Shown here: piece by piece, positions 8,516 to 63,798 of the stretch
Position numbering within the stretch: position 1 is the stretch's first letter
Layout of the letters: every line of letters starts with the position of its first letter
Origin: Ascidiella aspersa
Lineage: Eukaryota
Direction: 5' to 3'
DNA length: 64,000 nt
NCBI GenBank assembly: GCA_963924565.1
Contig: OZ004609.1
Span: forward strand, 13,330,001-13,394,000
Program-made: the position numbers and the translations under genes
Notes under the pieces: generated by a model
Seen by the model: only the letters and a program-made list of their open reading frames with translations
Told to the model about the DNA's origin: nothing
Databases searched by the model: none

Positions 8516-8712
8516 GTTCGAACCTCACTGCAGGCCAGTTGTTTTTCTGGCTTGCTCTGCTTGCATCATAGATCGACAGATTCGGCGAGTCTGCGATGGC
8601 TTTTCGGTGTACTATTGATACGGAAGCCGTAATCGTTGGTCATAAAGCAACTTCCGAGGGGCTAGATCACAGATGTTATTAAACACATATGTTTGTGTGT
8701 GTCTTTCATTCA
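8516..8712 (+). mobile_element. 5'-truncated copy of tRNA-derived SINE-like retroposon
   Basis: Near-identical to the element at 51.7-52.1 kb from the B box (GTTCGAACC) to the TTCATTCA tail; flanked by 12-bp direct repeat TTTATACCAGGG (8504-8515, 8713-8724). Confidence 0.9.
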
Positions 8713-8719
8713 TTTATAC

Positions 8720-21300: not shown

Positions 21301-24029
21301 CTAGCAATTAACGTTTTATTATGTGGAACCAGTTAAGTGTTACGTCATAAACGTGCGAAACCTCAAATTAAAGGTAACTGAAACGCAACATTGCTAATTA
21401 CCCAATCTGAAAGTTTTCGCAAATTTATACGTATGCCTTGAAAAGTTTTCGCAAAATTTATACGTAGTCGCGTACCACCTAAAAGACTCTCGCGTACCAC
21501 CGGTGGTACGCGTATCACAGTTTGGGAACCACTGCTGAAGCGTATACTTTATGCGTTTTACGGTGGAATGTTTCAGCTTTTGCCGGACATTTAATGCTTA
21601 GGCGAAGGGTATCGGGCTATCGGCAAGTAACATGCCACTAGAAAACACGGTGACGCCGCACTACATGACTACGTATAAAACAGCCCAGTAATTGTTTCGC
21701 CACAGCGACAGACCTTTACCCAAACTTGCCACTCGCCTACGTGCGGCGTAACTTTAGGTGATAAAACGAATAAAATGATCCAATATTCTACTTTAGACAT
21801 CCCTACTGACGAGTCAAAGCAAGTATCAGAAAAATGTGTTACATAACGTTACAAGAAAGTTTAACAGTCATATTAAAAAACACTAGTTTGAGTTATATGA
21901 CATATTAAAAAAATTACACTTTGTTTTTGCAATACCTATAGCTAAAGAGTTATGCCCGTGGCCCCCCAATGACCGCTCCGTGGACCCCCAGGGGGGGGCG
22001 AAGGAGAAACCCTGGGCCCTGGGAAGGAGAAACCCTGGACTGATCGAATAAGCATGCATTTCCGAACATGATGCAGTAGGTAATGGTGTCATGGCTGCGA
22101 CTCACTCCCCTTGTCTGCTTCTATAGCTCAGTTGGGGGAGCAACGAGCTCGATATGGTCGTAGGCCATGAGTTCAAACCTCACCATAAGCTTGGTTTTTC
22201 TATCCTCGCCTTGCTTGCGTAATAGATCGACTTATTCAGTAAATATCTAGGAGACTTCCGGTGTATTATCATGAGCCATGCATTTAATTAAGTTGCCATT
22301 ATAGCTGGCAATTTCATACAGCACGTTTTTCTGGCAGTGTGGTATTTGCAAACGTTAGAATCAGATGATAGAATGACTTCCTGTAAGATGTGAAAAAAGG
22401 TACATTCTTGTCTTTCCAGGTGGCAATTACAGCAGAAGGGAGTCTATGGAAAGTAACTATCGAACCCATATTTTAAAAAGAAACCGAACCAGTTTGGTTG
22501 ACGCATGGTCGTGGAAACAGAGAAAGAAGGTATTCTGCCTTTTGGGACCGCAGTTAGTACTGTTGGGCTTAACTCGTGGGTGGGTTTGAAAATAATTATT
22601 TTTAATTTTCAACTTAAATAAAAGTTAAAGTTAATATTTGCATATCACCTGCAGAATACCAATAGGCAAAATGATTTTATTTCTTGTAACCTATGTCATA
22701 CCATATGACAGTTTTGTAGAAAAACACAAGAGAATATTTCAACAACATATCAGAGGTTTAAAAGAACTTAACGCGCTACAAATGCTTTTTTTGTCAAAAG
22801 TATTAAAAACCTGAAGCGCTTTATAATCTTGGAATCAAAAGTCATTGGGCCACGTCAAGGCTTTGTAGAGTAGAATTTTGTCTTACTGTACAACTACTAT
22901 AGGATGCGATTCTGATGTATTATTTTATACACTGCTAAATAAATATTTTCAATAATAACTTAAGATTGATTTTAGAATAAAAACAGTTTTCAAAGTAACA
23001 ATGCTTCTTTTCCACTTTAGGCATCCTCAGCAGCTGTAAGTCTTCCCACACTGAACGAAAATGCACTGCCACGCCCATCGTTTGCCGAAGTTCAATACGA
23101 AAACCAACAGACAAAAAGGGAGAAGCCAGTGTATATCCACATACAAACTCTTGGAGAACGAGATGTGTTTGTATGAAAACCTAACAGAACCTTAAAGACT
23201 ATTCGCGTGTTTCTAAAATTGTACAAAATATACGGCTGGATATATAAGCAGATTTGCTGGGCAATAAAGATAAGAGATGCTATAGATTTTAACAATACTT
23301 AAAAAAATATGTAGTAGTTTACCGTTTAATACCTTCTAAATGTACTATGACAAAAGTATTTTTTAATCAAGACAAAACAATTCTGCTAAAAATATACCTT
23401 GCTTTTAACTGAAAGGCCAGTTAATGTACATTGTACACGCTGGAAAATATTTTTGGTCAATGTGCAGGGTTTTAATCAGGCCAAAATTAAAAACATGATA
23501 TACGACTAAATACTTCACAGTATAAATGTTTTATTTACGTTCTAAGGGTCTACTGCCGATACTATTCGACAAGTCGGAAGGTGCTACTACAGTATCTTTG
23601 ATATCTGAAGGCGCTGAGTGTATTCTTATCAACAAAGATTTCTTCATGAAGCACTTTGACGCGGAACTTAGAGAATCACTTGTTCGAAAGGTGAGAAAAA
23701 CACCAAGTTTTTGTGAATGGTTAATGGTAAATATCTCGGCTTCTCAAGACTGAAGGTACAAAATGAAATGGATATCTTTACGACCAGCATCAGTTGATAA
23801 TTTTTTTACCCCTTATAGTTTCGGTGACAAGCCTTATGTATTAACATATAGCAATATATTGTGTCGTTTTTAGGTTCGCCCTTATCCAACCGATGAAAAG
23901 CTACAATCGAGTATGCAAGATCAAGCCAATTGGGATGCCTATAAATTGATGACAGTGAATCAGATCAGGACAAAACACATAACTTCAATGAAGCCAGCGA
24001 CAATAGGCTTGAAACCCTCAGGATTTTAA
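12341..24029 (+). CDS. Cyclic nucleotide-binding domain protein (CNBD1/CNBD2-like), two CNB domains, long low-complexity N-terminus
   Basis: Exons 12341-13272, 14428-14533, 14701-14895, 14985-15059, 15124-15215, 15902-16028 (FEPKRIIIRQGHKAETFYLIISG), 16106-16248 (GKSFGELAIIRHEQRNNNVVS), 16325-16505, 17021-17132, 17193-17307, 17368-17426, 17510-17669, ~17771-17850, 22420-~22529, 23021-23170 (TLGERDVF), 23547-23690 (GL...SLISEGAECILI), 23874-24029 (stop TAA). Phases are consistent. Confidence 0.85.
13412..14001. mobile_element. Non-autonomous hAT element with GGTTC/CCGGTT subterminal repeat arrays
   Basis: Termini CAGGAAGTCCAACCG / CGGTTCGACACCCTG; TSD CTTTAATT/CTTTAATG; dense GGTTC repeats at both ends with an AT-rich core. 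Confidence 0.8.
18133..19715. mobile_element. Old TIR element with AGATGGGAC (Cimi-like) termini, containing nested insertions
   Basis: TAGGGGAAGGTTGCCCTAGATGGGAC at 18133 is an imperfect inverted repeat of GTGCCATCATGGGCAATCTTCCCTA ending 19715; further AGATGGGAC/TGTCCCATC motifs at ~18835, 19481 and 19503. Confidence 0.5.
18279..18592. mobile_element. hAT Buster-like MITE
   Basis: TIRs CAGTGTTTCTTAACC / GGTTGAGAAACGCTG; perfect 8-bp TSD CAGTAGGC. Confidence 0.9.
19965..20339. mobile_element. hAT (Tip100-like) MITE
   Basis: Termini CATAGGCGTAGCCAG / CTGGCTACGCCACTG; perfect 8-bp TSD CATCAATA. Confidence 0.85.
20923..21534. mobile_element. hAT Buster-like MITE
   Basis: TIRs CAGTGATTCCCAAAC / GTTTGGGAACCACTG; CGTACCA subterminal motifs; TSD CTGTAGCG/CTGAAGCG. 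Confidence 0.9.
22081..22320 (+). mobile_element. Diverged subfamily copy of the tRNA-derived retroposon
   Basis: tRNA-like head 22117-22190 (A box TAGCTCAGTTGG, B box GTTCAAACC), then T5 and a body alignable to the 52-kb copy (TGCTTGC..ATAGATCGAC..ATTC..CCGGTGTA). Confidence 0.8.
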
Positions 24030-25990: not shown

Positions 25991-28900
25991 CTACACCATC
26001 TTCGATCGTATCTGGTCATACTTTTGTAGAGTGATGCACCCGTGGTGCGAAATACCACAAGGAACGTTGCACTCGGATCTGATCACATTGCTGTCGGTAT
26101 CCAGGTAACTAACGTTTGACATTACTTTTCCCGTCTCGTCTCTTCCTCCAACAATAAAAATCTATAAGCGAAGTGAACAAAACTGTAAAAGTGTAAAGGT
26201 AAACCAGATCGTTTAAGGATTTAAATCAGATATCTTTATTTACTTTGACGTATATTTAGTGTCTATTTAATCATCTTTTTTGTCACCAATTTGTTTTATA
26301 ATGACTAAACAGACTGAGGGATAGTATTTAATAAACGAAAACTTTTAGAAAACAGATTGTTTTGGATGACAAGTAATCCGGTTAATGCTAAATCAATTAA
26401 GCCATTACTATAGTCTGTATAAGTGATGCTTGCTAACCTTGTCACTGCACAGTGTCACCCCACAACTAGCCCTCTCGGAGGTCAATTTCTCCCCCACTTG
26501 CTCCCAAATCGCAGAGTCAACATCAAACCGAAGCAGGCGTTTAAGTGTTCCCCCAACCACGTAGATCTTGCGGTTGTACGAGACAGCATTGATGCACTTC
26601 GCAGGTTCGGGCATCGAAGTCGAAAACCGCCAAAGATCGCTGGTAGGGTCGTACACCTTAAAACAATTTTAATAAATTGCGGTAATTGACTAGAGAAAAT
26701 TATGTGCATTGTATCACTGAGTGTTCAATCTATGGGTCACGACGGTTCGCCGACTGTAATACTTCACATGGTCAAGATCCGTCCAGATCAAATTTGAGAA
26801 AAATACAAAGACATCGCTGATTTTAATTCAATTCATTTTAATTTATACTATTTGTCTATTGTTTTGTTCAATTATAAAATGTTCAAAAAAAAAATGGGGC
26901 GCTTCCCCGTTATAGGCTGCCTACGCTTATCGTTTGGGTCGCCGCGAAAAAAGTAACGAAACACTGGTTATATCAAAACTTCAGGGAGCCAATGCGTGTG
27001 GGTCGCCTAATTTTTTTTGGTGTCGCCATAACTCACAATATTTCTGCGGTTTTAGAACGATTTACGTATTTTGTTTTCTTTACAATGACGTCATCTTAAT
27101 AAACGTGACTGAGTACATAGAAAAGATAATCTTATAAAATAGGTGTTTTTTTTAATAAATCATTTTGATGTACATATGTAGTCATAGTTCTCTGGAAATG
27201 TATAATTTCCCAAATTCACTCATGTTACGTAGTTCCAGCAGTATTATATATGAAAACAAAAATTGGGTCGCAATGTTAATTCTGATTTCAATTTATTTAA
27301 ATTGGGGTCGCTTATTAAAATGGTTGGAGACCACTGATCTATATCATGCAGTCCGCCATTGTTTGTAATAGGATATTTAACTGTGTCAATTTGCATAAAT
27401 AGTGACTATAAACCAGGGTTGGGTAACCTTTTGCGAAAAAAACAACTAAACAAAAAAACGAAATAAAGAAATAATAAAAGGTAATTGCACTATGTATTTT
27501 CGTTACGGTTCGAGTAAAATAAGCCGGTTATAAAACTCTAGTTGATTTAATAGAAACTGTATCGTCAATTTTGATCACATTTGTTCATGTAGGCGTGATC
27601 AATATATATACTTTCCACGTTTTGCCATATAAATATGTTTGGGTAAAGTAACAAACTCCTACCTGTACTTTTTCAGATGAGATTCGTACGCTGGGTCCAC
27701 CACCGATAACATAGATCATCTGATCGCACTCACAAACTGCTGCTGAGCTGACGCCTTCCATCATATGACGTTGTTCCTTCCATCGATTTTCTCTACGGTT
27801 TCAGCAAGTCACAAGTAATTAAGCAACCCACTGTTTCAACTATTAAATCCTTTGTTAATTGCCGTATATGTCTAATTCTAAATAGAGGAATCAAGCTTTC
27901 GCACAACCTTGCTTCATCTCTTTTTTTAACCTTGCTTCATCAGGTCAAAGCTATTATGTCTGTTGCGGTCTTACAATACAGTGCCACCTGACTCCTCTAT
28001 GAAATTGTATTTCTCTTTTACCTTGAATTATACTTTTCCAAGCTGTCGACCCTCAGTAAGCCGTCGTACCCTCCAACCACATACATATATCCTCCACAGG
28101 TTACCATACGGTGACGCCATCTGCCCGTGTTAAGTCCGCCGAGCTCGACCCACTGACGCAGGGAAGTAATGAACATCCACGCTTCCTATCGTGAAATAAG
28201 TCTTTAGACAGCCGAATGTCATATTACAAAATATAGTAATTTATTTCCTACTGTACTTCGTTTTAGGATTCGGTGCATATTGCGATAATAGCTTTAGGTT
28301 TGTAAAGAAGATAAAATGGTCTGTCAGCTGAGTTAACTTATAATAATAACTACCTTTCTGCTTTCCTTCCCTCCGCTTATTACAATGTTATTCTTCCATG
28401 ACACGCAGCCGAACTCCGCCCATTTCGACCTCTCAGGGTTGGCAGGGTTGGCAGGGTTGTTGCCGTTCGACTGAGAAGTTCTCCGCGTTGAGTTGCTGCT
28501 GTTCGGCAGCTGGCAAAGAGTGGCGCGTGTTTTGTGCTGGAAGTCCAACACTGACACTTCTCCGATGAACTTGTCATCTTTGTCACAACCACCGACCGTC
28601 ACAAAAACCTGTGTAAAACAGTAATATTCACACACACAAAAAAAAATAATTACAAAAAAATACATTTCGCGCCTATAAATTAGCCTTTTAGAGAACGCAA
28701 TTTCACAAGTTTCTTAATTTATCACTTACTTGGTGGACCAAGGCGCTCTGGCGAGGAACAATACGTGATCCCTCTGTGACGTCACCAATGGTTCGGTAAC
28801 GCCTTGCTTCCATAAGGAAATCAAATAGATCTGGGTTGTTTTTGATAAAAGGATGAGGTTCCACTTTCGTGACGAAATATGCCGGGTCGATCAAGGGAAA

Positions 28901-31900
28901 TTTGACCTTTACGTCGTTAAACATTTGTTATCTTTATTTTTAATATTAATGGTATTTGATAATTTTACAATTGGGTGCCTTTATATTAAGTTAAAAAAAT
29001 TGAGTAAAGAAAGTTTTAAAGGTGCTTGAACAGTGGTTGTTTACTGTGAGCCATGATAGGCCGCTTCTGCCTTTAAAAGGTGGTCCTGGGTTGTCAGCAT
29101 CTGGGGCCAATAATTTGCGAGGCACACTCAATAGTAGACTATATAAACTTCCTTGTTATTTAATACAAACGTTTGGGCAGTTTTTATTGATTAAATATGA
29201 CTTAGAGACCTTTCGCGTGACGTTCTGTGAAGTCTTCACTTTTTTGTTAAACGTGATCAGGAATCACAATTTCTTGAGCGTCCATATAAGGGGTACATGA
29301 CTAACGATAGGTTAAGAACCACTGGCCTATATAGCATAGCGTATCAACCTCTGACCCGACATTACACGTTTACCCAATAAAATTTAACTGGAATGTAATA
29401 TCGTTTAGGCCAGTGGTTCTTAAACTGGGGGGCGCGCGAGGTTCACAAGGGGGGCGCGAAAATTGACAAAATCTGTATTAATTATGACTAAACTTTATGG
29501 TGATTATTGAATGAACAACATCGAGTTATCACACATTACTTTTTTCTGTCCTGTAGAACAGGGGTCCGCAAATACGGGGTCGCGACCCAAATTTGGGTCG
29601 CGGGACCATTAAGTTTGGGTCGCAAAAGCCTTAATATTTTTAAAAGCGGCCTATATTTGGTAAGTTTTTTTAATTGTTTTTATGAAGAGCCGTCTTACTT
29701 TGAGCGCGACTAGACTTGTCAAGCGAAATATATACACCAAGACCCGTGAAATATCGTGAGACCTTTGTTCAATCCAGGCTATGGGAAAGAGAGCTCGCAA
29801 TCCAACACTGTTATGGGCATTACCACACCAAACTAATCTGCTGAGCCGGAATCTGGGTTTACTTCCTATTATATGCTTTTTTAAAAACGCTTTTTAGCCC
29901 GTTTTCTGTAAGTTTTTTCTCAGACCAAACGTGACGTGCGCATGACAACTATAGGCCTAAGTAGGAAATTTGTCGTAGTATGAAAGCACATAATAAAAAA
30001 AAAATTGTCGTAGCATGAAAGAAAATTTAAAAAGCCGAGAACTTGCTGAGTTTGCTTTGGCCAGCGACTTGGTAAAGGTTGCCGATTTCTGTCTAAAAAT
30101 GTATATTGTCCCCTGAAAAATCCTTAGATCCGCGCCTTATAATGTTGAGCTTATAGTGTTAAGTTTCCTAAAACGATTGCGAGACGTCGAGCATTTTTGG
30201 TGAGTTGCACCCAGTTTAGGCCTGCAGCACCAAAAAATCATTACACACCTTGCCAGTAATTATTGCACTAAACTAAGTAGCGGACGGGGGTTGAAGGGGT
30301 TTGAGTTGGTGGGGGCTCCTACCCCAAGAGTACATATTGGTTGCTAAATCATATTTGTCATCCGAATGAGACATCACAAGTAGTAAAACTCGAGGCATCT
30401 TTTTAGTTGTGTTACAGAACCCATCAACAAAGCACATAACATAGATTTGTCATAATAAATAGAAACACAATAGTTGCCGTTTTTTTAGCAAAGCTATTTT
30501 GTTAAAACCATCTCGAAGAATTTGGGTCGCAAGACCTCGGTACTAGTAATTAGGGGTCGCGCCAAAAAGTAATTGCGGACCCCTGCTGTAGAATATTCCT
30601 GTTGATTTTAAGGTTAGTATTTTCGTTTTGTAAGATGATTCCACAAAAACTTTATGCTTACGCATTAATCACGTGATTAAGTTACCCGCTCTGATCGGCC
30701 ATTCGAGAAAAACATGGTGTGTGCCGCATCACACATTAATTTTTTTCTGTCCTGTACAATATTCCTGTTGATTTTAAGGTTAGTATTTTCATTTTGTGAG
30801 GAGATGATTCCACAAAAACTTTATGCTAACGCATTATTCACGTGATTAAGTTACCCGCTCTGATCGGCCATTCGAGGAAAACATGGTGTGTGCCGCACGC
30901 ACGCATGCGATTAAAAACGATATTTGTTAATACCAAAATTTGTTTAATTTTTCGTACTGTTTAATAAATAGCTCAAATATTCACAGAGAAAGTGCTAATA
31001 CTGTTAATTGTTTGTTTCAGTTTGTTTCAGCCCAAAGGCGTCGAGCGTCTTATCGCACTATCAAAAAGTTTTTGCAACTTCAAACAATATAAGTTTTTTA
31101 TTTCTTTTCACGAATAGCTTTTGTAATAAAAGTAACACCACTCCAACCTATAACTTTAACAAAATAAACGAACTGTGTGGTGTACTTAAGTTTACTTTTA
31201 TGACGTCCGATTTTGATGCCAATTTGTGGCATTACGTTTTGATGTAACTCTGTGACGTAACGTTATGACGTAATTTCCCCCGCTTGCTCGAGTGTCATAT
31301 TCGTTATCTTTTGCTGCAAGTTTCGATTCCGGTGACCGTTATGAGTAACAAACATATAACTTGAATTGGAATACGAAATTTGGTCGCGAGTAAAAAAATA
31401 ACAATTCGAAAGTATAGATTGATAAAATCAATACATTTTACTTTATTAAAATTGTTATGTTTAATAAGGTTGTTTTTGTCCAACTTTACTTATTGAGAGA
31501 ATTAGGAAAATACTCGGTAATAAAAAGAAGCTTAAATAACAACATTTGTGTCAATTGCCATTCTTTTTACTTTTTAAAATGAAAAATTTTACAAAAAAAA
31601 ATCAATCATAATACTGCTCTATAACGTCGATTTGTGCATCCATTGTAACTTACATGTTTGAGAAGTTTGGGCAAATGTGGTTTTCGTTTTTCAGGAGAAT
31701 GTTGGCACCAAAACATAACGAGTTGAAACACTTGCTCCTCGTAGTGAATCATCAAATCACCACGGCACACCAAAGTTTCCAAGAGTTCAGTGGACAGTAC
31801 AACAATGTCCGATTTCTACATAGTGGCAAGTCTCGGGGATAACTAATTTAAGGTTAACAGAAGGGCAAGGAAAGTTTAACTTTATTTATAAGTATATTGT

Positions 31901-34900
31901 TGCTACCAGGCATTGTTCGATTAAAAATTGGTTATCCGGCAAACTTTTGATTGTGCCAACGTTTCAATGACTTCAGGTTATCTTCAACAAGGCAATAAAA
32001 CTTGCAACTTCGCGAAAAATTCATATAAATGCAGTCAAGAAATAAGACCACAATAAAAAACGGCGACTGAACAAAGCCAACAACAAGACAACGCTATTTT
32101 CACCTTGTTCGGTCGACCTGTTCAAATGCTTTTATCATTTGGCTGCATATTTTATATTTTTGCTAACTTGCAAGTTAATTGCCCTGATGACGATTACACG
32201 AATAGGTCAAAGAAACGTTGGTACAAACAATGAAAAAAAAATTGTCTGAACGAACAATTCCATAATTGTTAAACCTTATCTTGTATACTTACGCAAAACC
32301 GTAATATATATATTAAAAAGCGAAAAGACATTCTTAGTACGAAGATTTTAGTTGACCGACATAATTATTCCTAATCAAAAAAATATTATTGTTCAGTAAC
32401 CTAAAGCGTTGTGCACTTAAACACCAGCAAATAAAATTGGTTAACGACGTGTTAATCCCAATAACAGATATCTTGGAAGACTTTGAATTGATAGTTCTTG
32501 GAATTTTTATTGAATTAGTTAGGGTTCTGTTCATTGTTGTGATCAATGGTCAATGATCCGACTTTCGGTTTTCTATGCGACAATTGCTATAGCATCGAAA
32601 GAAGAGGAGTCAGCACACATAAATTAAAACAATGGCGCTTGAAAAAAGTTGACTCGCTAGATTTATATACTCACTTCCTGCAGCTGGTCAAAGCATGTGA
32701 CGCACTTGAGTCTTGCCAGCACCAGCAAATGATGTAGGTTGTGTGTATGAGCAAGCTCCATAATACCTGGCGCATTTTCTACGTCAAGTTCGCCCACAAA
32801 ATAGTTGGAACAAGCTTCCAGAACTCTCTCGAACTGATTAAAACAAAAAACACTTTATCCTATATGTTTTTTGTACAAATTGGCAACAATTAAAAAACAA
32901 CTTTTGTAAACAGCTAGTAGGCTTTAATTGAAGTGCAAATTCTCAAATTTATAACCATTGGCGGTTCATCGTGTCTATAGAGATAACCCTGTTGACCCCA
33001 AACAAATAGAAGTAAACGGCAAATGTTAAGAGCTAAATCTAACGACGAAACTGAAAACTGACCCCAACTGTTATTTATTCTCAACTTTATTCGTTGGTAG
33101 ACCACAACGTCTATTCAGACTACCTTGTTGACCACAAATAAATACAAGTAAACGGCAATTTTTGAAGATTAAACTAAAGACGAACATGAAAACTGATCCC
33201 CATTGTTATTTCTCATAGAATCTATAGTATAGAATCTATACTATAGATCAACTGTTAAGAAGATCTGCTCTAGTACAAGATTGGCAACAATGTTAGTTGT
33301 AGCGTATCATAAGCAATAATCATTAACCTGTAGTAGGCTTGCAGCCTCGAGGACACTTTGAACACTTTCGCGATTGATTTCTAAAAATGAAGTGTAGGAG
33401 TAACGAATAAGTATCTTCATAACGTCCGAAGATACTCCTCGGATTGTAACAGAGGGCTGGTTTCTTTCTTTGTAATCGTTGCAGAACATTGCCCTATAAT
33501 TTTTAATTTTATAAAAAGAGTTAAAAATTTAGTAGGCCTATAAAACGAGAAAGTATGTATAAGCCGTAAGCGTATCGTGCAACTATATGCATCGTGGTTA
33601 ACAGTGGAAAAATAGAGAAGGAATCATCTCGACGACATAGAATAACAGTAGGCCTAATATAACTTGACACTTAACAGCGCGTAGATTACCACAGAGCGAT
33701 GTTATAGTTAGAAGTCACAGCGTTTAGGGACGAAAAGTGTTAAAATAGAGTGTGGAAACATAGGGTCTTAGTTAACTTTGAAAAAAACCCTTTAGTTTCA
33801 GATACAGCATTACAAATATGAAGTAAATTAATCCTATACTTTTTAGATCTAGTCTAGTAAGTTAACGGGAACTTTATTTCCTCTTACATCATAATAACAC
33901 AATGCCTTTTTCTTTATTGGAATTTGGAAACAGCCGGAAATGACGCGAATAGAGAACTTAACCCGGCGATTCTTTAACTCTGTGTCTCGAGAGATTCTTG
34001 AGTTTGCCGCTAAACTTTTTATTATTTTAGAAAATAACCCATTCGTGTTCCAAATGGGCCTGCACTCCGCAGCATGCGGCATAAATGTAGACGATCTATT
34101 TGAAAACTGACGAAGTGATAATAATATATAAGTACTTAAACATACCTATTGTCTTGCGCTATATATAAAGTGTGATTGTCAAGTTATGAAACTGTTGTTT
34201 TGTTAAAATGGTGCCGCCAATATTTTCAAGCTAAGAAGGTTTGAGAACTACCGCAGCATTATTCTGAAATAAATTCTACAGTTTTGACAAATATTGAGCA
34301 ATCTCGTAAGTGTTAACGTTTTTTTGAGAATTTGAGATTTGATTATATTGATATTGACGTTGGTTTGTACAATACAAATATATCAATGGTAGCACTATCT
34401 TTAACCTACCTAAAATATTTGCTACTTGCAGCAAGAATCATTCGATGGCATAAGAATCGGTGATCATCAATTTGCAATGTGACGTCAGAAAACTGTCCAT
34501 CTAACGCCATTTCTCGAATGGAATCCTTTATTGAAAAGTAACACACAATATTAATCACGAAGCAACGATATCTAAAGCGGAATTATCAAAGGTTCCAGTA
34601 TAGTCGTTTCGGCCTAGTCAATACGACGCCATTTAGAGACGGGTGCTTTTCTGGTATCTAACTGATGCCCTTGTTTTGGGTTAGCTCTGGACAATTAGTA
34701 TGGTTAGAACTTGGGTTAGGGTTTGAATAATTGAGGAATTAGTGTTAAACAAAGGGGCGTTGTTTGGGATTCGGTAAGGGGTTGTTAAAATATTTTTCTG
34801 GTCGTTTAGGTCTTATTCCGACTATTGGCCATTAGTCCTATTTTGGTTTTATTACAAACTGTGTTTTATTTCGACATTAATTTAATTATATTTTGTGGTC

Positions 34901-36348
34901 TTGTTGCTGGAAACCCTTTTAATACGTTTATATGTGCCTTTTTCAAGGTATTTGACGATTTATTGACATATTTCTACCTGCATCAGTGAAGGAAAGTAGG
35001 GATCTGAATACTGAAAGTAAGCTGATGAACTATTTCCATGCGACTCCCTTGATTTAACGAAATCCTTACATTTTAGTTCCATGGCAAGTCGACAAACATC
35101 TGAAAAAAATAACATTTGTGCGAAAAAATAACACTAAATTCGCTTAAACAGAAATGGCAAGGGCTTTCAAACCACTTACAATGATTTGCATTCTAACTTA
35201 ATCAGTAAAGTTTATTTGAATGTAAATAGATAACGATTCCCGATTGTATAGAAAGAAAGTAAAACTTTAAGGAACCTTCCATGTAAATTAAATTACCGTT
35301 CACGGTAAGTTTTACATTTTTAAAGACGTAAGTCAATGACATAAAGTGCACTTAAGTCACTGCATTTATTTCGTAAAATGGGTTGTTTAAATTTGTGAAC
35401 TTAAAAAATGTAATTACTATTCGTTTCGTTTATGAATATTGCAATGTGAAATATTTCTTAGGAAGAAATTACATTACTCATTGTAATAATGTAACATTGT
35501 GTTATGTTAATTACTAGACCTGGAATTGACTTTCTATGGCAATCACTTAACTTATTTATTATTAATTAAAAAACGTTGACTCGGATTTAAGCTACTTTGC
35601 AAATGAACTGACAGGGGCGTAAGTTATTTAAAAAAAAAAAAGATTTACAAAATGGTAACTGGTAGTATAGGGCCATACCAGTCTAGTCATTGTGAATTGT
35701 AATGAGTAATGACCTACCATCTGACGCTTGCTTATCGTTGGGTGATAATTGATTTTCCAGACCGGAACTTCCTGGTGCAGACATAAGGCATGGTACAGAG
35801 GAGTTAGGCAATATCGACAAAAGATTAACGTTTGGTTTCTCAAACAGTTCGCTCATGTTAATGTACACGTGTTTATCTTCCGGATCGGGTTGCACTGATT
35901 GCACATCCTCCGCAATGCCAGGGGTTTCATTGTAATCTTCAACGGGTGTTGTATTGTCGTCGTTCTGCGCTAAAACATATTGTCCTGGTGTGTCACTGTC
36001 GCATATTTGGTTGGCGCAAATGCTGCTTGTAGTTGCACACTGTTCCACCTCATCAAGACTCGAGTCAGAGTCTTGACTGTCTGGAACATTGGCACGTAAT
36101 TCGGCGAGGTGGGTCTCCGTCACTTTGGATGGCAAGGTAAGCGAATTATTTGGGCAATTGAGGGACTGACTTGTCGAGGCTCCAGTGCTCTCATCAACAT
36201 TTGAGTAGGTCTTTCGCAATGTTCGTTTCAGCTTTTTAATTCGTGATGCCACCCTTTCAGACGAACTGTAAGTTACTTTCTTCAACTTTTGCGCAGATCT
36301 ACAGCTTTCCGCCATCTCTTCGTTGTCAGTTGAATTAAGGGAGGACAT
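25991..36348 (-). CDS. KLHL24: Kelch-like BTB-BACK-Kelch CUL3 adaptor, KLHL24/KLHL35-like
   Basis: Exons 36348-35718, 35099-34978, 34525-34410 (FSDVTLQIDDHRFLCHRMILAASSKYFR), 33493-33328 (AMFCNDYKE), 32833-32675, 31815-31654, 28906-28730, 28608-28354, 28185-28022 (VVGGYDG), 27792-27663 (IYVIGGGP...SEKVQ), 26656-26438, 26161-25991 (IVGGRDE...SHHGCITL, TAG). AMFCND, GGGP..S.KVQ and HGC.T motifs match KLHL24. Confidence 0.85.
27891..27946 (-). ncRNA. Minimal type-I hammerhead ribozyme-like motif (Penelope-type), stem-II loop expanded by duplication
   Basis: Minus strand: gac CTGATGA a GCA [29-nt loop containing duplicated GATGAAGCAAGGTT] TGC GAAA GCTT gat. Confidence 0.6.
29559..30585. mobile_element. 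hAT Buster-like non-autonomous element (~1.03 kb)
   Basis: Perfect 13-bp TIR CAGGGGTCCGCAA / TTGCGGACCCCTG; perfect TSD CTGTAGAA (29551-29558, 30586-30593); GGGTCGC subterminal motifs. Confidence 0.95.
30586..30898 (+). repeat. ~170-bp tandem duplication (first unit interrupted by the 29559-30585 MITE)
   Basis: ATCACACATTA..TTCTGTCCTGTA(G/C)AATATTCCTGTTGATT...ACATGGTGTGTGCCGC occurs twice (29528-29558 plus 30594-30727; 30728-30897). Confidence 0.9.
31945..32235. mobile_element. Inverted pair of diverged Penelope-like terminal fragments, each with a degenerate hammerhead core
   Basis: Arms ~31945-32050 (-) and ~32130-32235 (+) are homologous; cores TTGAAGA..GAAACGTTGG and CTGATGA..GAAACGTTGG. 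Confidence 0.55.
32993..33212 (+). repeat. Diverged ~135-bp-period direct repeat in KLHL intron
   Basis: TTGACC..AAATA.AAGTAAACGGCAA...GACGAA..TGAAAACTGA.CCC.A.TGTTATTT occurs twice. Confidence 0.7.
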
Positions 36349-38941
36349 TGTCTAATTTATAAACATTGTGGTGAAAACTAAGGATTAAAATAATATTACA
36401 TCTGTGTTTTGGAAATTTCAGCGATTTTTTGTTTGCTGTAGTAGCTCTCTCTGCTTTTTTAGTCGCAATTTATGACGGTAAAAATTGTCTTGGATACAAC
36501 AGAATAACAGGACTTTTTTTGTTCACTTTTCAAGGCATTACGAATCAAGTTCAGAATTGTTTAGTTAAAATGTGCCATACGTTACAGGGCGGTCCTCCAA
36601 TATTCTTTTATTTTTTCCATCATGCAAGTATTTTAAACCGTTTTTGTTCCATCGAACAATTCTTTCGGCTCATTATAGCCCATAAAACGCTGCAAGCTTA
36701 GGTTTACTTTTAATAATAAACTATGTTTAAATTGTTAAGCAGCAAAAAGTTTTGCCATGTTTCTGCTAACAAGTAATTCAATATATTTTTCCTATGAGCA
36801 GAATGCGCTAGCGTGTATTGCGGCTACAATATTGGTATTTATAACTTTTGAAGATGGAAGTTGTTCGTGATTAACATCTTACATCAGTCGGATATATGTA
36901 GAAATGGGACAAAACTATGTATTTAATTATCTTTCCGATTTGCATAAACGATTTAAGTAACTATAGCGCTAATTTTAGCATTACAATGATGGCATACATA
37001 TTACGAGACAGATTTTTTTAACAGCGATCTGCAGTCAATTGAAATGGCAGCCTACTATACTACTGGGCATTACCCACAATTTGGGAACCACTGCAGCAAC
37101 CCCAATAAACTAAGCTAAAAATATATTTGTTTAGTTGCTAGCCTACCTTATTACTGGGGATATTAGGCTTAACAATTGATTGTACGCTTAGTTTTAAAAT
37201 CCCATCAATATAGGGAAAATAAAAGACTTCTTGTATTTCACAATGCTGCCATTTTAGCCATGGAGTAACATTATTTTCCAATCACCATTATATCCCTCCG
37301 TCCATAACTGTCACTATTAGTACTTGCCGCCAACGAATTTGTGTTTAGACACTACTATATTAAAAATAGGTGCCATCACATTTTACACTAACAGTCTAAC
37401 ACTCTTCCAAGTCACTTACATTAACTGGTTCAATTGGTAAAAATAAACTTTCAATCTTCCTATAACGCTAGATCTCATGAATTTGACTTACTAGCGAATA
37501 AGTTCTCGCATGAAGGTGCGGAATTTCATCATTTACAAATAACTTTATATGCCAAACGCCATTGTACACTGACTGCTACAATATGAACTAACACAATGCA
37601 GGCACCAGGGCAATGCACAGGAAGGCAGAGTTTCCTGTACGTAGCAGCAACAAAATACTGGCGTCATCAAGGGTTTCTGCAACTGGTGTAGTCGACTTAC
37701 CAGTTGGACATCAAACTGCATAATGCAGTTTCAAACAAATGTAAAACGTTGACTTCAAGTAACTGTTTGTCGCGACGGATTCCAAAAAAATCTTAAAAGG
37801 CTAATTCTGGTCACTCAGCATAAGTGAAAGTGTGTCCAGTCTCTATCTTCATAAAGGTTGACTAAACAGAACACCAATTTGCTTTTCTTAGGCCGTTCTA
37901 CAAGAAGACACATGCTTACTTTTGGGAAACCTCAATCTAACATACTAAGGTATAGGTTACACCTTCAATATTCTCACAGTTACTTCAGCGCCCGACCTAT
38001 CACGTGCATTCTGTTTGCAACACCAACTTCTCTGTCCGCGGAGTAGTTCATGAATCGACTGAAAACGCATCATCAAGTCGTTATATGCGAAACTTGCGAC
38101 CTAATTCATGCATCATACACGGAACGCTTCTTTCACTGTCTGACACGTCAACATGATAATTTACGCTATCACTTGTTTAGGCGCCAACACGAAATCTGCA
38201 GCGATTAACTTTGAATGTATTTACATTTTGTCCTAAAGTGCATTAGTCATACAACCTTACGGTTATGGTAAAGTGGAAAACAAACCGGAAATTTTAACAA
38301 TAAATATATTTTCGGAAATTTGATCGAAACACATCCAACCTCGAAACACGCGCAAAGCAAAAAAACAACGTAGCGAAAAAACAGAATGAAGCAATCAAGC
38401 TCGATACAAATTGATGCATTACTTTCCACGCACAATCATCTAGTCTTTCCACACGGGGGTTGTTCGCATGTTATAATGAGAATGCCAAATGCGTGCCTTC
38501 CAGACAAACTAGAGCTTACCGGAGGGCACTTTAAAAAGAAAAAACACCTCCACCAACAAAGGACAAGTCATTTAAATAAACTTTTGCAAAATGCAATTTG
38601 AAATAACAAATCCTAAAGTGCGATTTGAATAAGCAAAATCGTTTTTTATTATAATAAATAAATGTATGTTTAAAAATTATAAGCCTAACGGCATTATAAA
38701 CCGAAAGGTGGCCATTTCGCTTCTTTAAACTATATTTCTAAATAATATGCCTCGAGTCACCATATGAAATAACACCTACATAACTTTCTGGCATATATAT
38801 ATGATTATTTAATTTTTTAACGCGTTGAAAAACGTTGGCCCGGTGATGTTAGCGTTGCATATTTCACGTGCGAGTTTCTTGCGGTTGTGCAACTTCGAAA
38901 AGGGAAGAGAATAAAAGCGTATACACTACAGCGTTGTTTAT

Positions 38942-63798: not shown

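Follow-up and report, generated by a model that had tools for sequence, protein, structure and literature searches.

The five hammerhead-like motifs in a 64,000-nucleotide stretch of the Ascidiella aspersa genome (contig OZ004609.1, positions 13,330,001 to 13,394,000; hereafter, the window) are very probably decayed minimal hammerheads in the truncated pseudo-LTRs (pLTRs) of four families of Penelope-like elements (PLEs), likely inert and likely undergoing neutral decay. A pattern search of the window recovered all five motifs listed by the first-pass annotation, at 27943-27893(-), 31987-31958(-), 32184-32219(+), 57761-57791(+) and 61319-61284(-). The pattern nearest to the one used there had seven window matches, compared with 1.07 ± 1.03 in 200 block-wise dinucleotide shuffles of the window (seven or more in 0/200), and a strict core pattern had three against 0.075 expected from the shuffles. 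An Rfam scan of the window returned no match to hammerhead models up to E=5, a result that is no test either way. Since approximately one loose match per window is expected at random, and three such matches were found here (2978, 44477 and 53803), the five motifs might likewise be random hits of a loose pattern on AT-rich intron sequence. The three are set aside as chance: none fits any family profile, and 53803 also lies inside a predicted exon. For the five motifs, however, this explanation is refuted through flank homology, as four of them fit family profiles with E no higher than 1.5e-10 and the motif at 27943 fits family F in three pieces, and we regard its probability as practically nil.

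The motifs had been taken for five independent copies of a single family. They instead belong to four PLE families (F, D, A and C) and represent four insertions, with 31987 and 32184 forming the two arms of one inverted insertion. Profile searches also revealed family B and E pieces that are absent from the first-pass annotation. The insertions and their two host genes are as follows:

26438..36351, minus strand: host gene 1, a BTB-kelch protein (predicted exons; BTB and Kelch domains by Pfam).
27850..27960, minus strand: pLTR stub of PLE family F (Neptune/Nematis-type linker), core at 27943-27893, parent L051.
27975..28004, plus strand: short inverted piece of the family F pLTR end, a weak match (nhmmer E=0.007, blastn E=0.007), just upstream of the 27850..27960 stub.
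31918..32094, minus strand: PLE family D, first arm of the inverted pair, core near 31990-31958, profile E=1.5e-10, parent L106.
32094..32268, plus strand: PLE family D, second arm of the inverted pair, core at 32184-32219, profile E=2.2e-13.
44848..44950, minus strand: family B pLTR piece without a core, E=8e-13, newly found.
49150..63700, minus strand: host gene 2, a NEK1-like kinase that runs on to the window end (RNA reads, predicted exons, NEK1 match E=7.5e-22).
52556..52680, no single strand: inverted family B pLTR pieces without a core, by profile match, newly found.
54495..54558, plus strand: family E stub with the 3' half of the core only, E=4.6e-07, newly found.
57557..57848, plus strand: PLE family A stub of ~290 nt, core at 57761-57791, profile E=3.3e-26, parent L232.
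61280..61432, minus strand: PLE family C stub, core at 61319-61284, profile E=1.7e-17, parent L093.

Each motif had been described as disabled by one lesion of its own. The named lesions are there, but most copies carry several (for example, 27943, 57761 and 31987). At 27943 the core letters are intact, with a 23-nt insertion or duplication in loop II and a ~40-nt deletion that took the 3' strand of stem I. The family D insertion spans ~31918-32268 with divergent arms, whose mutual pairing in the pre-mRNA is predicted at -116.5 kcal/mol for a 390-nt fold; its 31987 copy has a damaged 5' box and a 3-nt deletion in stem/loop II, and its 32184 copy has intact core letters and an unpaired stem II. 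The 57761 copy, in a stub 78-79% identical to other family A copies, is missing G12 and has one stem I pair broken, and the 61319 copy carries C3U in its core. Outside the core, the four profile-aligned window copies differ from their families at 31/106, 28/97, 21/115 and 13/70 sites (18-29%), and at such divergence a 13-nt core survives intact with a probability of 0.01-0.08. Broken motifs are therefore expected in these copies, and five of them need no special cause.

The earlier remark that no reverse transcriptase or GIY-YIG reading frame is visible nearby was confirmed by tblastn of the window with 10 PLE proteins, which gave nothing at E<=0.01 and thus no PLE coding remnant; a blastn match of 53171-53322 to a GIY-YIG locus was accordingly rejected as PLE coding sequence. 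Weak minus-strand pLTR matches to families E and F were seen at 59477-59529 and 56598-56648 (E ~0.003). Other repeats in the window include a tRNA-derived SINE family (51713-52143, 8516-8714, 53570-53729 and 22117-22237); in this family, the 51.7-52.1 kb copy contains a perfect inverted duplication of 127 nt and shares 98-100% identity with the 8.5-kb copy. A long hairpin at 46027-46298 (75-nt arms, 93% complementary) scores on miRNA models, below the cut-offs, is repeated elsewhere and is probably a MITE. A 169-nt two-copy tandem duplication at 30586-30897 is nested in other repeats within the long BTB-kelch intron.

As had been proposed, all five motifs lie in introns; these belong to two minus-strand genes and are placed partly by predicted exons. 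The 27943 motif falls between predicted exons 28022-28185 and 27663-27792 of the BTB-kelch gene, and predicted exons place the 32-kb pair in a 3.8-kb intron of the same gene, between 32675 and 28906. The motifs at 57761 and 61319 lie in introns of the NEK1-like gene, both set by predicted flanking exons rather than by listed read joints, with ~55 nt separating the 61319 core from a predicted 3' splice site downstream. Stranded RNA reads, which comprise ~6% of one same-species run, revealed minus-strand GT-AG introns across 44.5-63.7 kb, while the introns at 24-44 kb are given by prediction and Pfam. The exon finder was self-trained, seeded on the RNA joints of the window and validated by those joints, by flank agreement and by Pfam; its reversed-sequence control was weak (524 real versus 235 control exons at score 16) because reversal preserves coding periodicity. 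Relative to their hosts, the motifs at 27943, 31987 and 61319 are sense and those at 32184 and 57761 are antisense.

At 61.3 kb the RNA depth was ~0.16, with no end pile-ups among those listed, and back-joints of circular RNA were found at neither 57.8 nor 61.3 kb in the same ~6% of one run, where depth is low. A pile of 48-50 reads at 57753-57790, with two differing letters and loose ends, belongs to another copy and not to this locus. That other family A copy carries G8A, and its transcription, at fair depth and perhaps as part of a UTR, runs antisense to the hammerhead. A minus-strand ETF-ubiquinone oxidoreductase gene (38946-46580), which lies between the BTB-kelch and NEK1-like genes, shows an alternative joint near 45876-46458 in the RNA reads.

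Across 308.6 Mb of genome sequence, the exact core pattern had at least 3,507 matches (families with GC or with a longer palindrome fall outside it), compared with 110 for the pattern reversed and 132 with its second box inverted. The high copy number suggested from the window is therefore upheld: the motif count was not equal to that of the controls, and both intact relatives and Penelope elements are present in the genome. Clustering of 214 distinct intact cores with their flanks yielded 12 families of at least two members and six singletons. Family cores have CUGANGA and GAAA boxes, a palindromic 15.2-16.2, UH and no stem III, and the window copies are damaged versions of them. Over the 12 families, stem II is paired at 45/48 positions and stem I at 43/48, with different letters; mixing the arms between families gave 2.7 (stem II) and 2.0 (stem I) pairs per 4, and the observed pairing was reached in 0/20,000 permutations, in which related families are not independent. 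One unpaired base follows A9 in all 12 families, and G10.1-C11.1 is present in 11.

These properties closely match the min-HHRs described by Cervera and de la Pena 2014 (PMC4209133), who reported that single motifs are dispersed in their thousands per genome and fall into several families, that opposite-strand pairs are separated by 100-700 bp, that the motifs derive from truncated PLEs and that a single motif does not cleave. Shared with that description are the type I core without stem III, the palindrome at 15.2-16.2, the short stem I, the single unpaired base after A9, the G10.1-C11.1 pair (in 11/12 families here), the thousands of single motifs, the opposite-strand pairs and the few copies in full PLEs. 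Only the host and the particular families differ, and the supplements of that paper may list related families. We found no literature naming these ascidian PLE hammerhead families, which published supplements may likewise list. The motifs are real, ordinary PLE debris, in which the families are new and the kind is already known.

Each window family (F, C, D and A) has a parent elsewhere in the genome that combines a reverse transcriptase frame with an intact minimal hammerhead downstream, which substantiates the proposed link to Penelope elements for all four. The parents were reached by a GIY-YIG family search and a search with one PLE protein:

L051, family F (27943): 488-codon, 5'-truncated frame; RVT_1 E=3e-10, GIY-YIG E=2e-7.
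L093, family C (61319): 815-codon open frame; RVT_1 match.
L106, family D (31987 and 32184): RVT_1 frame, hammerhead ~200 nt downstream, endonuclease end damaged.
L232, family A (57761): RVT_1 and GIY-YIG by Pfam; direct and inverted hammerheads.

In L051 the hammerhead lies 185 nt downstream of the frame, with a 140-nt inverted repeat upstream, and in L093 a pair of direct repeats, set 2,633 nt apart and each bearing a hammerhead, encloses the frame. Three of the four window families show a clear GIY-YIG domain or motif, although the GIY-YIG-like motif of L093 was recognized by eye and regex only and has no Pfam score. The pLTR arrangement is direct in L093 and inverted in L051, L055, L102, L105 and L232. 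Between families F, C and D the parent proteins share only 25-47% identity, which points to separate invasions. A CX2-5CxxC linker occurs in family F and is absent from families C and D; judged by this linker motif alone (Craig et al. 2021, PMC8557442), family F would be of Neptune/Nematis type and families C and D of Penelope/Poseidon type. Like canonical C-terminal EN+ PLEs (PMC8557442, PMC11167929), these elements have the reverse transcriptase followed by GIY-YIG, a hammerhead in the pLTR, 5' truncation, an inverted 5' copy, a 30-40 nt tail and tandem arrays.

Further PLE loci came to light in the same searches. L054 (G000:C2:30626000-30635999) and L053 hold a tandem array with a 3,422-nt period of a different PLE, which has a Zn-finger-like linker and a hammerhead in which a 4-nt palindrome replaces the usual 2-nt one. 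A second PLE tandem array, with a ~2.67-kb period and open frames of 816-843 codons, is found at L096 (G000:C9:23484000-23493999), L094 and L095; the core pattern found no hammerhead in the fetched L095 and L096 stretches and one candidate downstream in L094.

When mapped on the parents, the 3' ends of copies cluster 40-70 nt past the cut site. The 5' ends do not pile up there (in family B, 1/184 alignments starts exactly at the cut site), and the upstream sequence shared by family B copies ranges continuously from 20 to 400 nt or more, into the endonuclease frame. Clustering of 5' ends at -110 in family B was rejected as a sign of a fixed element end, since the reference copy, L109, has an internal deletion that produces it. 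Outside the window we collected 251 core-spanning copies, including 104 that form inverted pairs of divergent orientation, 15-2,341 nt apart, and 18 pairs of same-family direct neighbours at irregular spacings of 168-4469 nt.

These copy ends bear on the earlier suggestion of a non-autonomous, retrozyme-like system. By definition, retrozymes consist of tandem units that each carry a hammerhead (bioRxiv 10.64898/2026.07.22.740005), and the animal non-LTR retrozymes (same preprint; PMC7229834) share with our copies a type I hammerhead, a PLE origin and non-coding copies. High copy number, short length, a window without coding sequence and 7/18 same-strand neighbours within 900 nt would all be compatible with a dedicated non-autonomous family, either a retrozyme or SINE-like, that spreads via circular RNA. 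Such a family is nonetheless extremely improbable, and largely refuted for these five motifs, given that the four stem/flank families are unrelated and each run on into a coding PLE, that 5' ends form a continuum from 20 to >400 nt that reaches into the endonuclease frame, and that the cores are without canonical helix sizes or stem III. Unlike retrozymes, the window and sampled copies are solo or inverted truncation stubs and not tandem units; no tandem units with complete hammerheads were found in the window and no regular array among the 251 copies, in which direct neighbours are few and irregular.

We instead favour an origin of the stubs by truncated copying of PLEs. The active element would encode a reverse transcriptase and a GIY-YIG endonuclease and carry its hammerhead in the pseudo-LTR, and copying would start ~40-60 nt past the cut site of the hammerhead. 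An early stop would be the usual outcome, leaving a stub of 100-400 nt that retains the hammerhead, frequently accompanied by a second, inverted piece. The parents, the 3' ends, the variation in 5' ends and the inverted pairs were observed, and target-primed copying of uncut RNA is the process they would suggest. For the anole PLE, Frangieh et al. 2024 (PMC11167929) report that reverse transcription begins inside the RNA downstream of the hammerhead, that uncut RNA is the main template, that the hammerhead cuts only with PLE protein present and that the required RNA reaches beyond the start site. By analogy with the anole element, the required RNA would exceed what a stub keeps. A lone stub, with no stem III, no partner and probably no protein-binding stretch, would leave the host RNA uncut, judging from other PLEs in vitro, and would then accumulate random mutations.

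Core and non-core decay were compared in copies selected by their flanks. A flank-only search that left the core free had 281 matches for family B, 104 for family A and 0 for the controls. From the first 100 family B matches, with six segmental duplicates dropped, we obtained 90 loci with 94 copies, of which 88 have the modal length. Core positions were mutated in 49/1,144 cases (4.3%) and non-core positions in 78/1,672 (4.7%; p=0.65, with one subfamily variant column discounted), and the core was intact in 50/94 copies. The first 30 family A copies gave 6/390 for core versus 13/570 for non-core positions (p=0.49), with 26/30 intact. There was consequently no excess of core lesions in the flank-selected copies of either family. 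Among profile-found copies the core was less mutated than the flanks, which we attribute to ascertainment and ragged boundaries.

Decay inside genes had also been read as a sign of selection against self-cleavage of pre-mRNA, in which intact sense copies would cut the host transcript and disabling mutations within genes would be favoured. We compared orientations in 140 loci of ~8 kb (90 from family B and 50 of the 100 listed for family A, some of the latter chosen because they were broken or formed long pairs, without regard to the host strand), which hold the 251 profile-identified copies. At an exon score of 16, 135 copies were flanked by exons on both sides and 109 of these had both flanks on the same strand, with strands called ab initio. 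Between same-strand exons, including four window copies, we counted 25 sense and 25 antisense intact copies and 33 and 30 broken ones (p=0.85; three other exon thresholds, p=0.39-1.0). Solo copies were similarly balanced (intact, 16 sense and 13 antisense; broken, 17 and 18), with a 95% interval of 0.36-0.74 for the sense share of intact ones. When 133 of the 159 flanking exons (the two longest per locus) were submitted to Pfam, 44 matched host-gene families (33/67 loci) and none matched a reverse transcriptase or transposase. Setting aside three between-gene or low-complexity loci left 30 with a Pfam-confirmed flanking exon, at which 11 sense and 7 antisense copies were intact and 13 and 12 were broken. 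Because some duplicate loci remain and miscalled strands would dilute an effect, only strong selection is excluded by these comparisons.

Some observations do lean towards selection: in inverted pairs within called genes (n = 23) the sense copy alone was broken in six and the antisense copy alone in three, which is not significant; the core was intact in 49/109 copies (45%) in called genes and in 75/142 (53%) elsewhere (p=0.25); and retrozymes are reported to be depleted from Xenopus introns after size normalisation (bioRxiv 10.64898/2026.07.22.740005). Against it, two of the five window copies are antisense yet equally decayed, core substitutions per site are 0.058 in sense versus 0.068 in antisense copies, and at L253 and L143 intact solo sense copies have exons of one Pfam-confirmed gene type on both sides. 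The published biochemistry is also unfavourable, with no in vitro cleavage by a single min-HHR (PMC4209133) and protein-dependent cutting of the anole hammerhead (PMC11167929). With no core-lesion excess and no sense/antisense difference, selection against pre-mRNA self-cleavage is unlikely, a weak effect being conceivable, and neutral decay of the stubs is the reading we retain.

We found no literature on sense/antisense orientation tests of PLE hammerheads, and the direct test here was negative: intronic PLE hammerheads appear to be tolerated when intact and sense, in line with the notion that minimal hammerheads do not cut when alone. Protein assistance has been seen in vitro for a PLE hammerhead, so bursts of PLE expression could trigger, in trans, simultaneous cuts in many host pre-mRNAs at the several hundred intact sense PLE hammerheads in introns and so impose weak selection on sense copies, a scenario to which we assign a slender chance. 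The intronic copies would matter more only if the PLE protein can trigger host-intron cleavage. Several PLE families in the genome are young and have long open frames, and these could be used to study how PLEs are copied.
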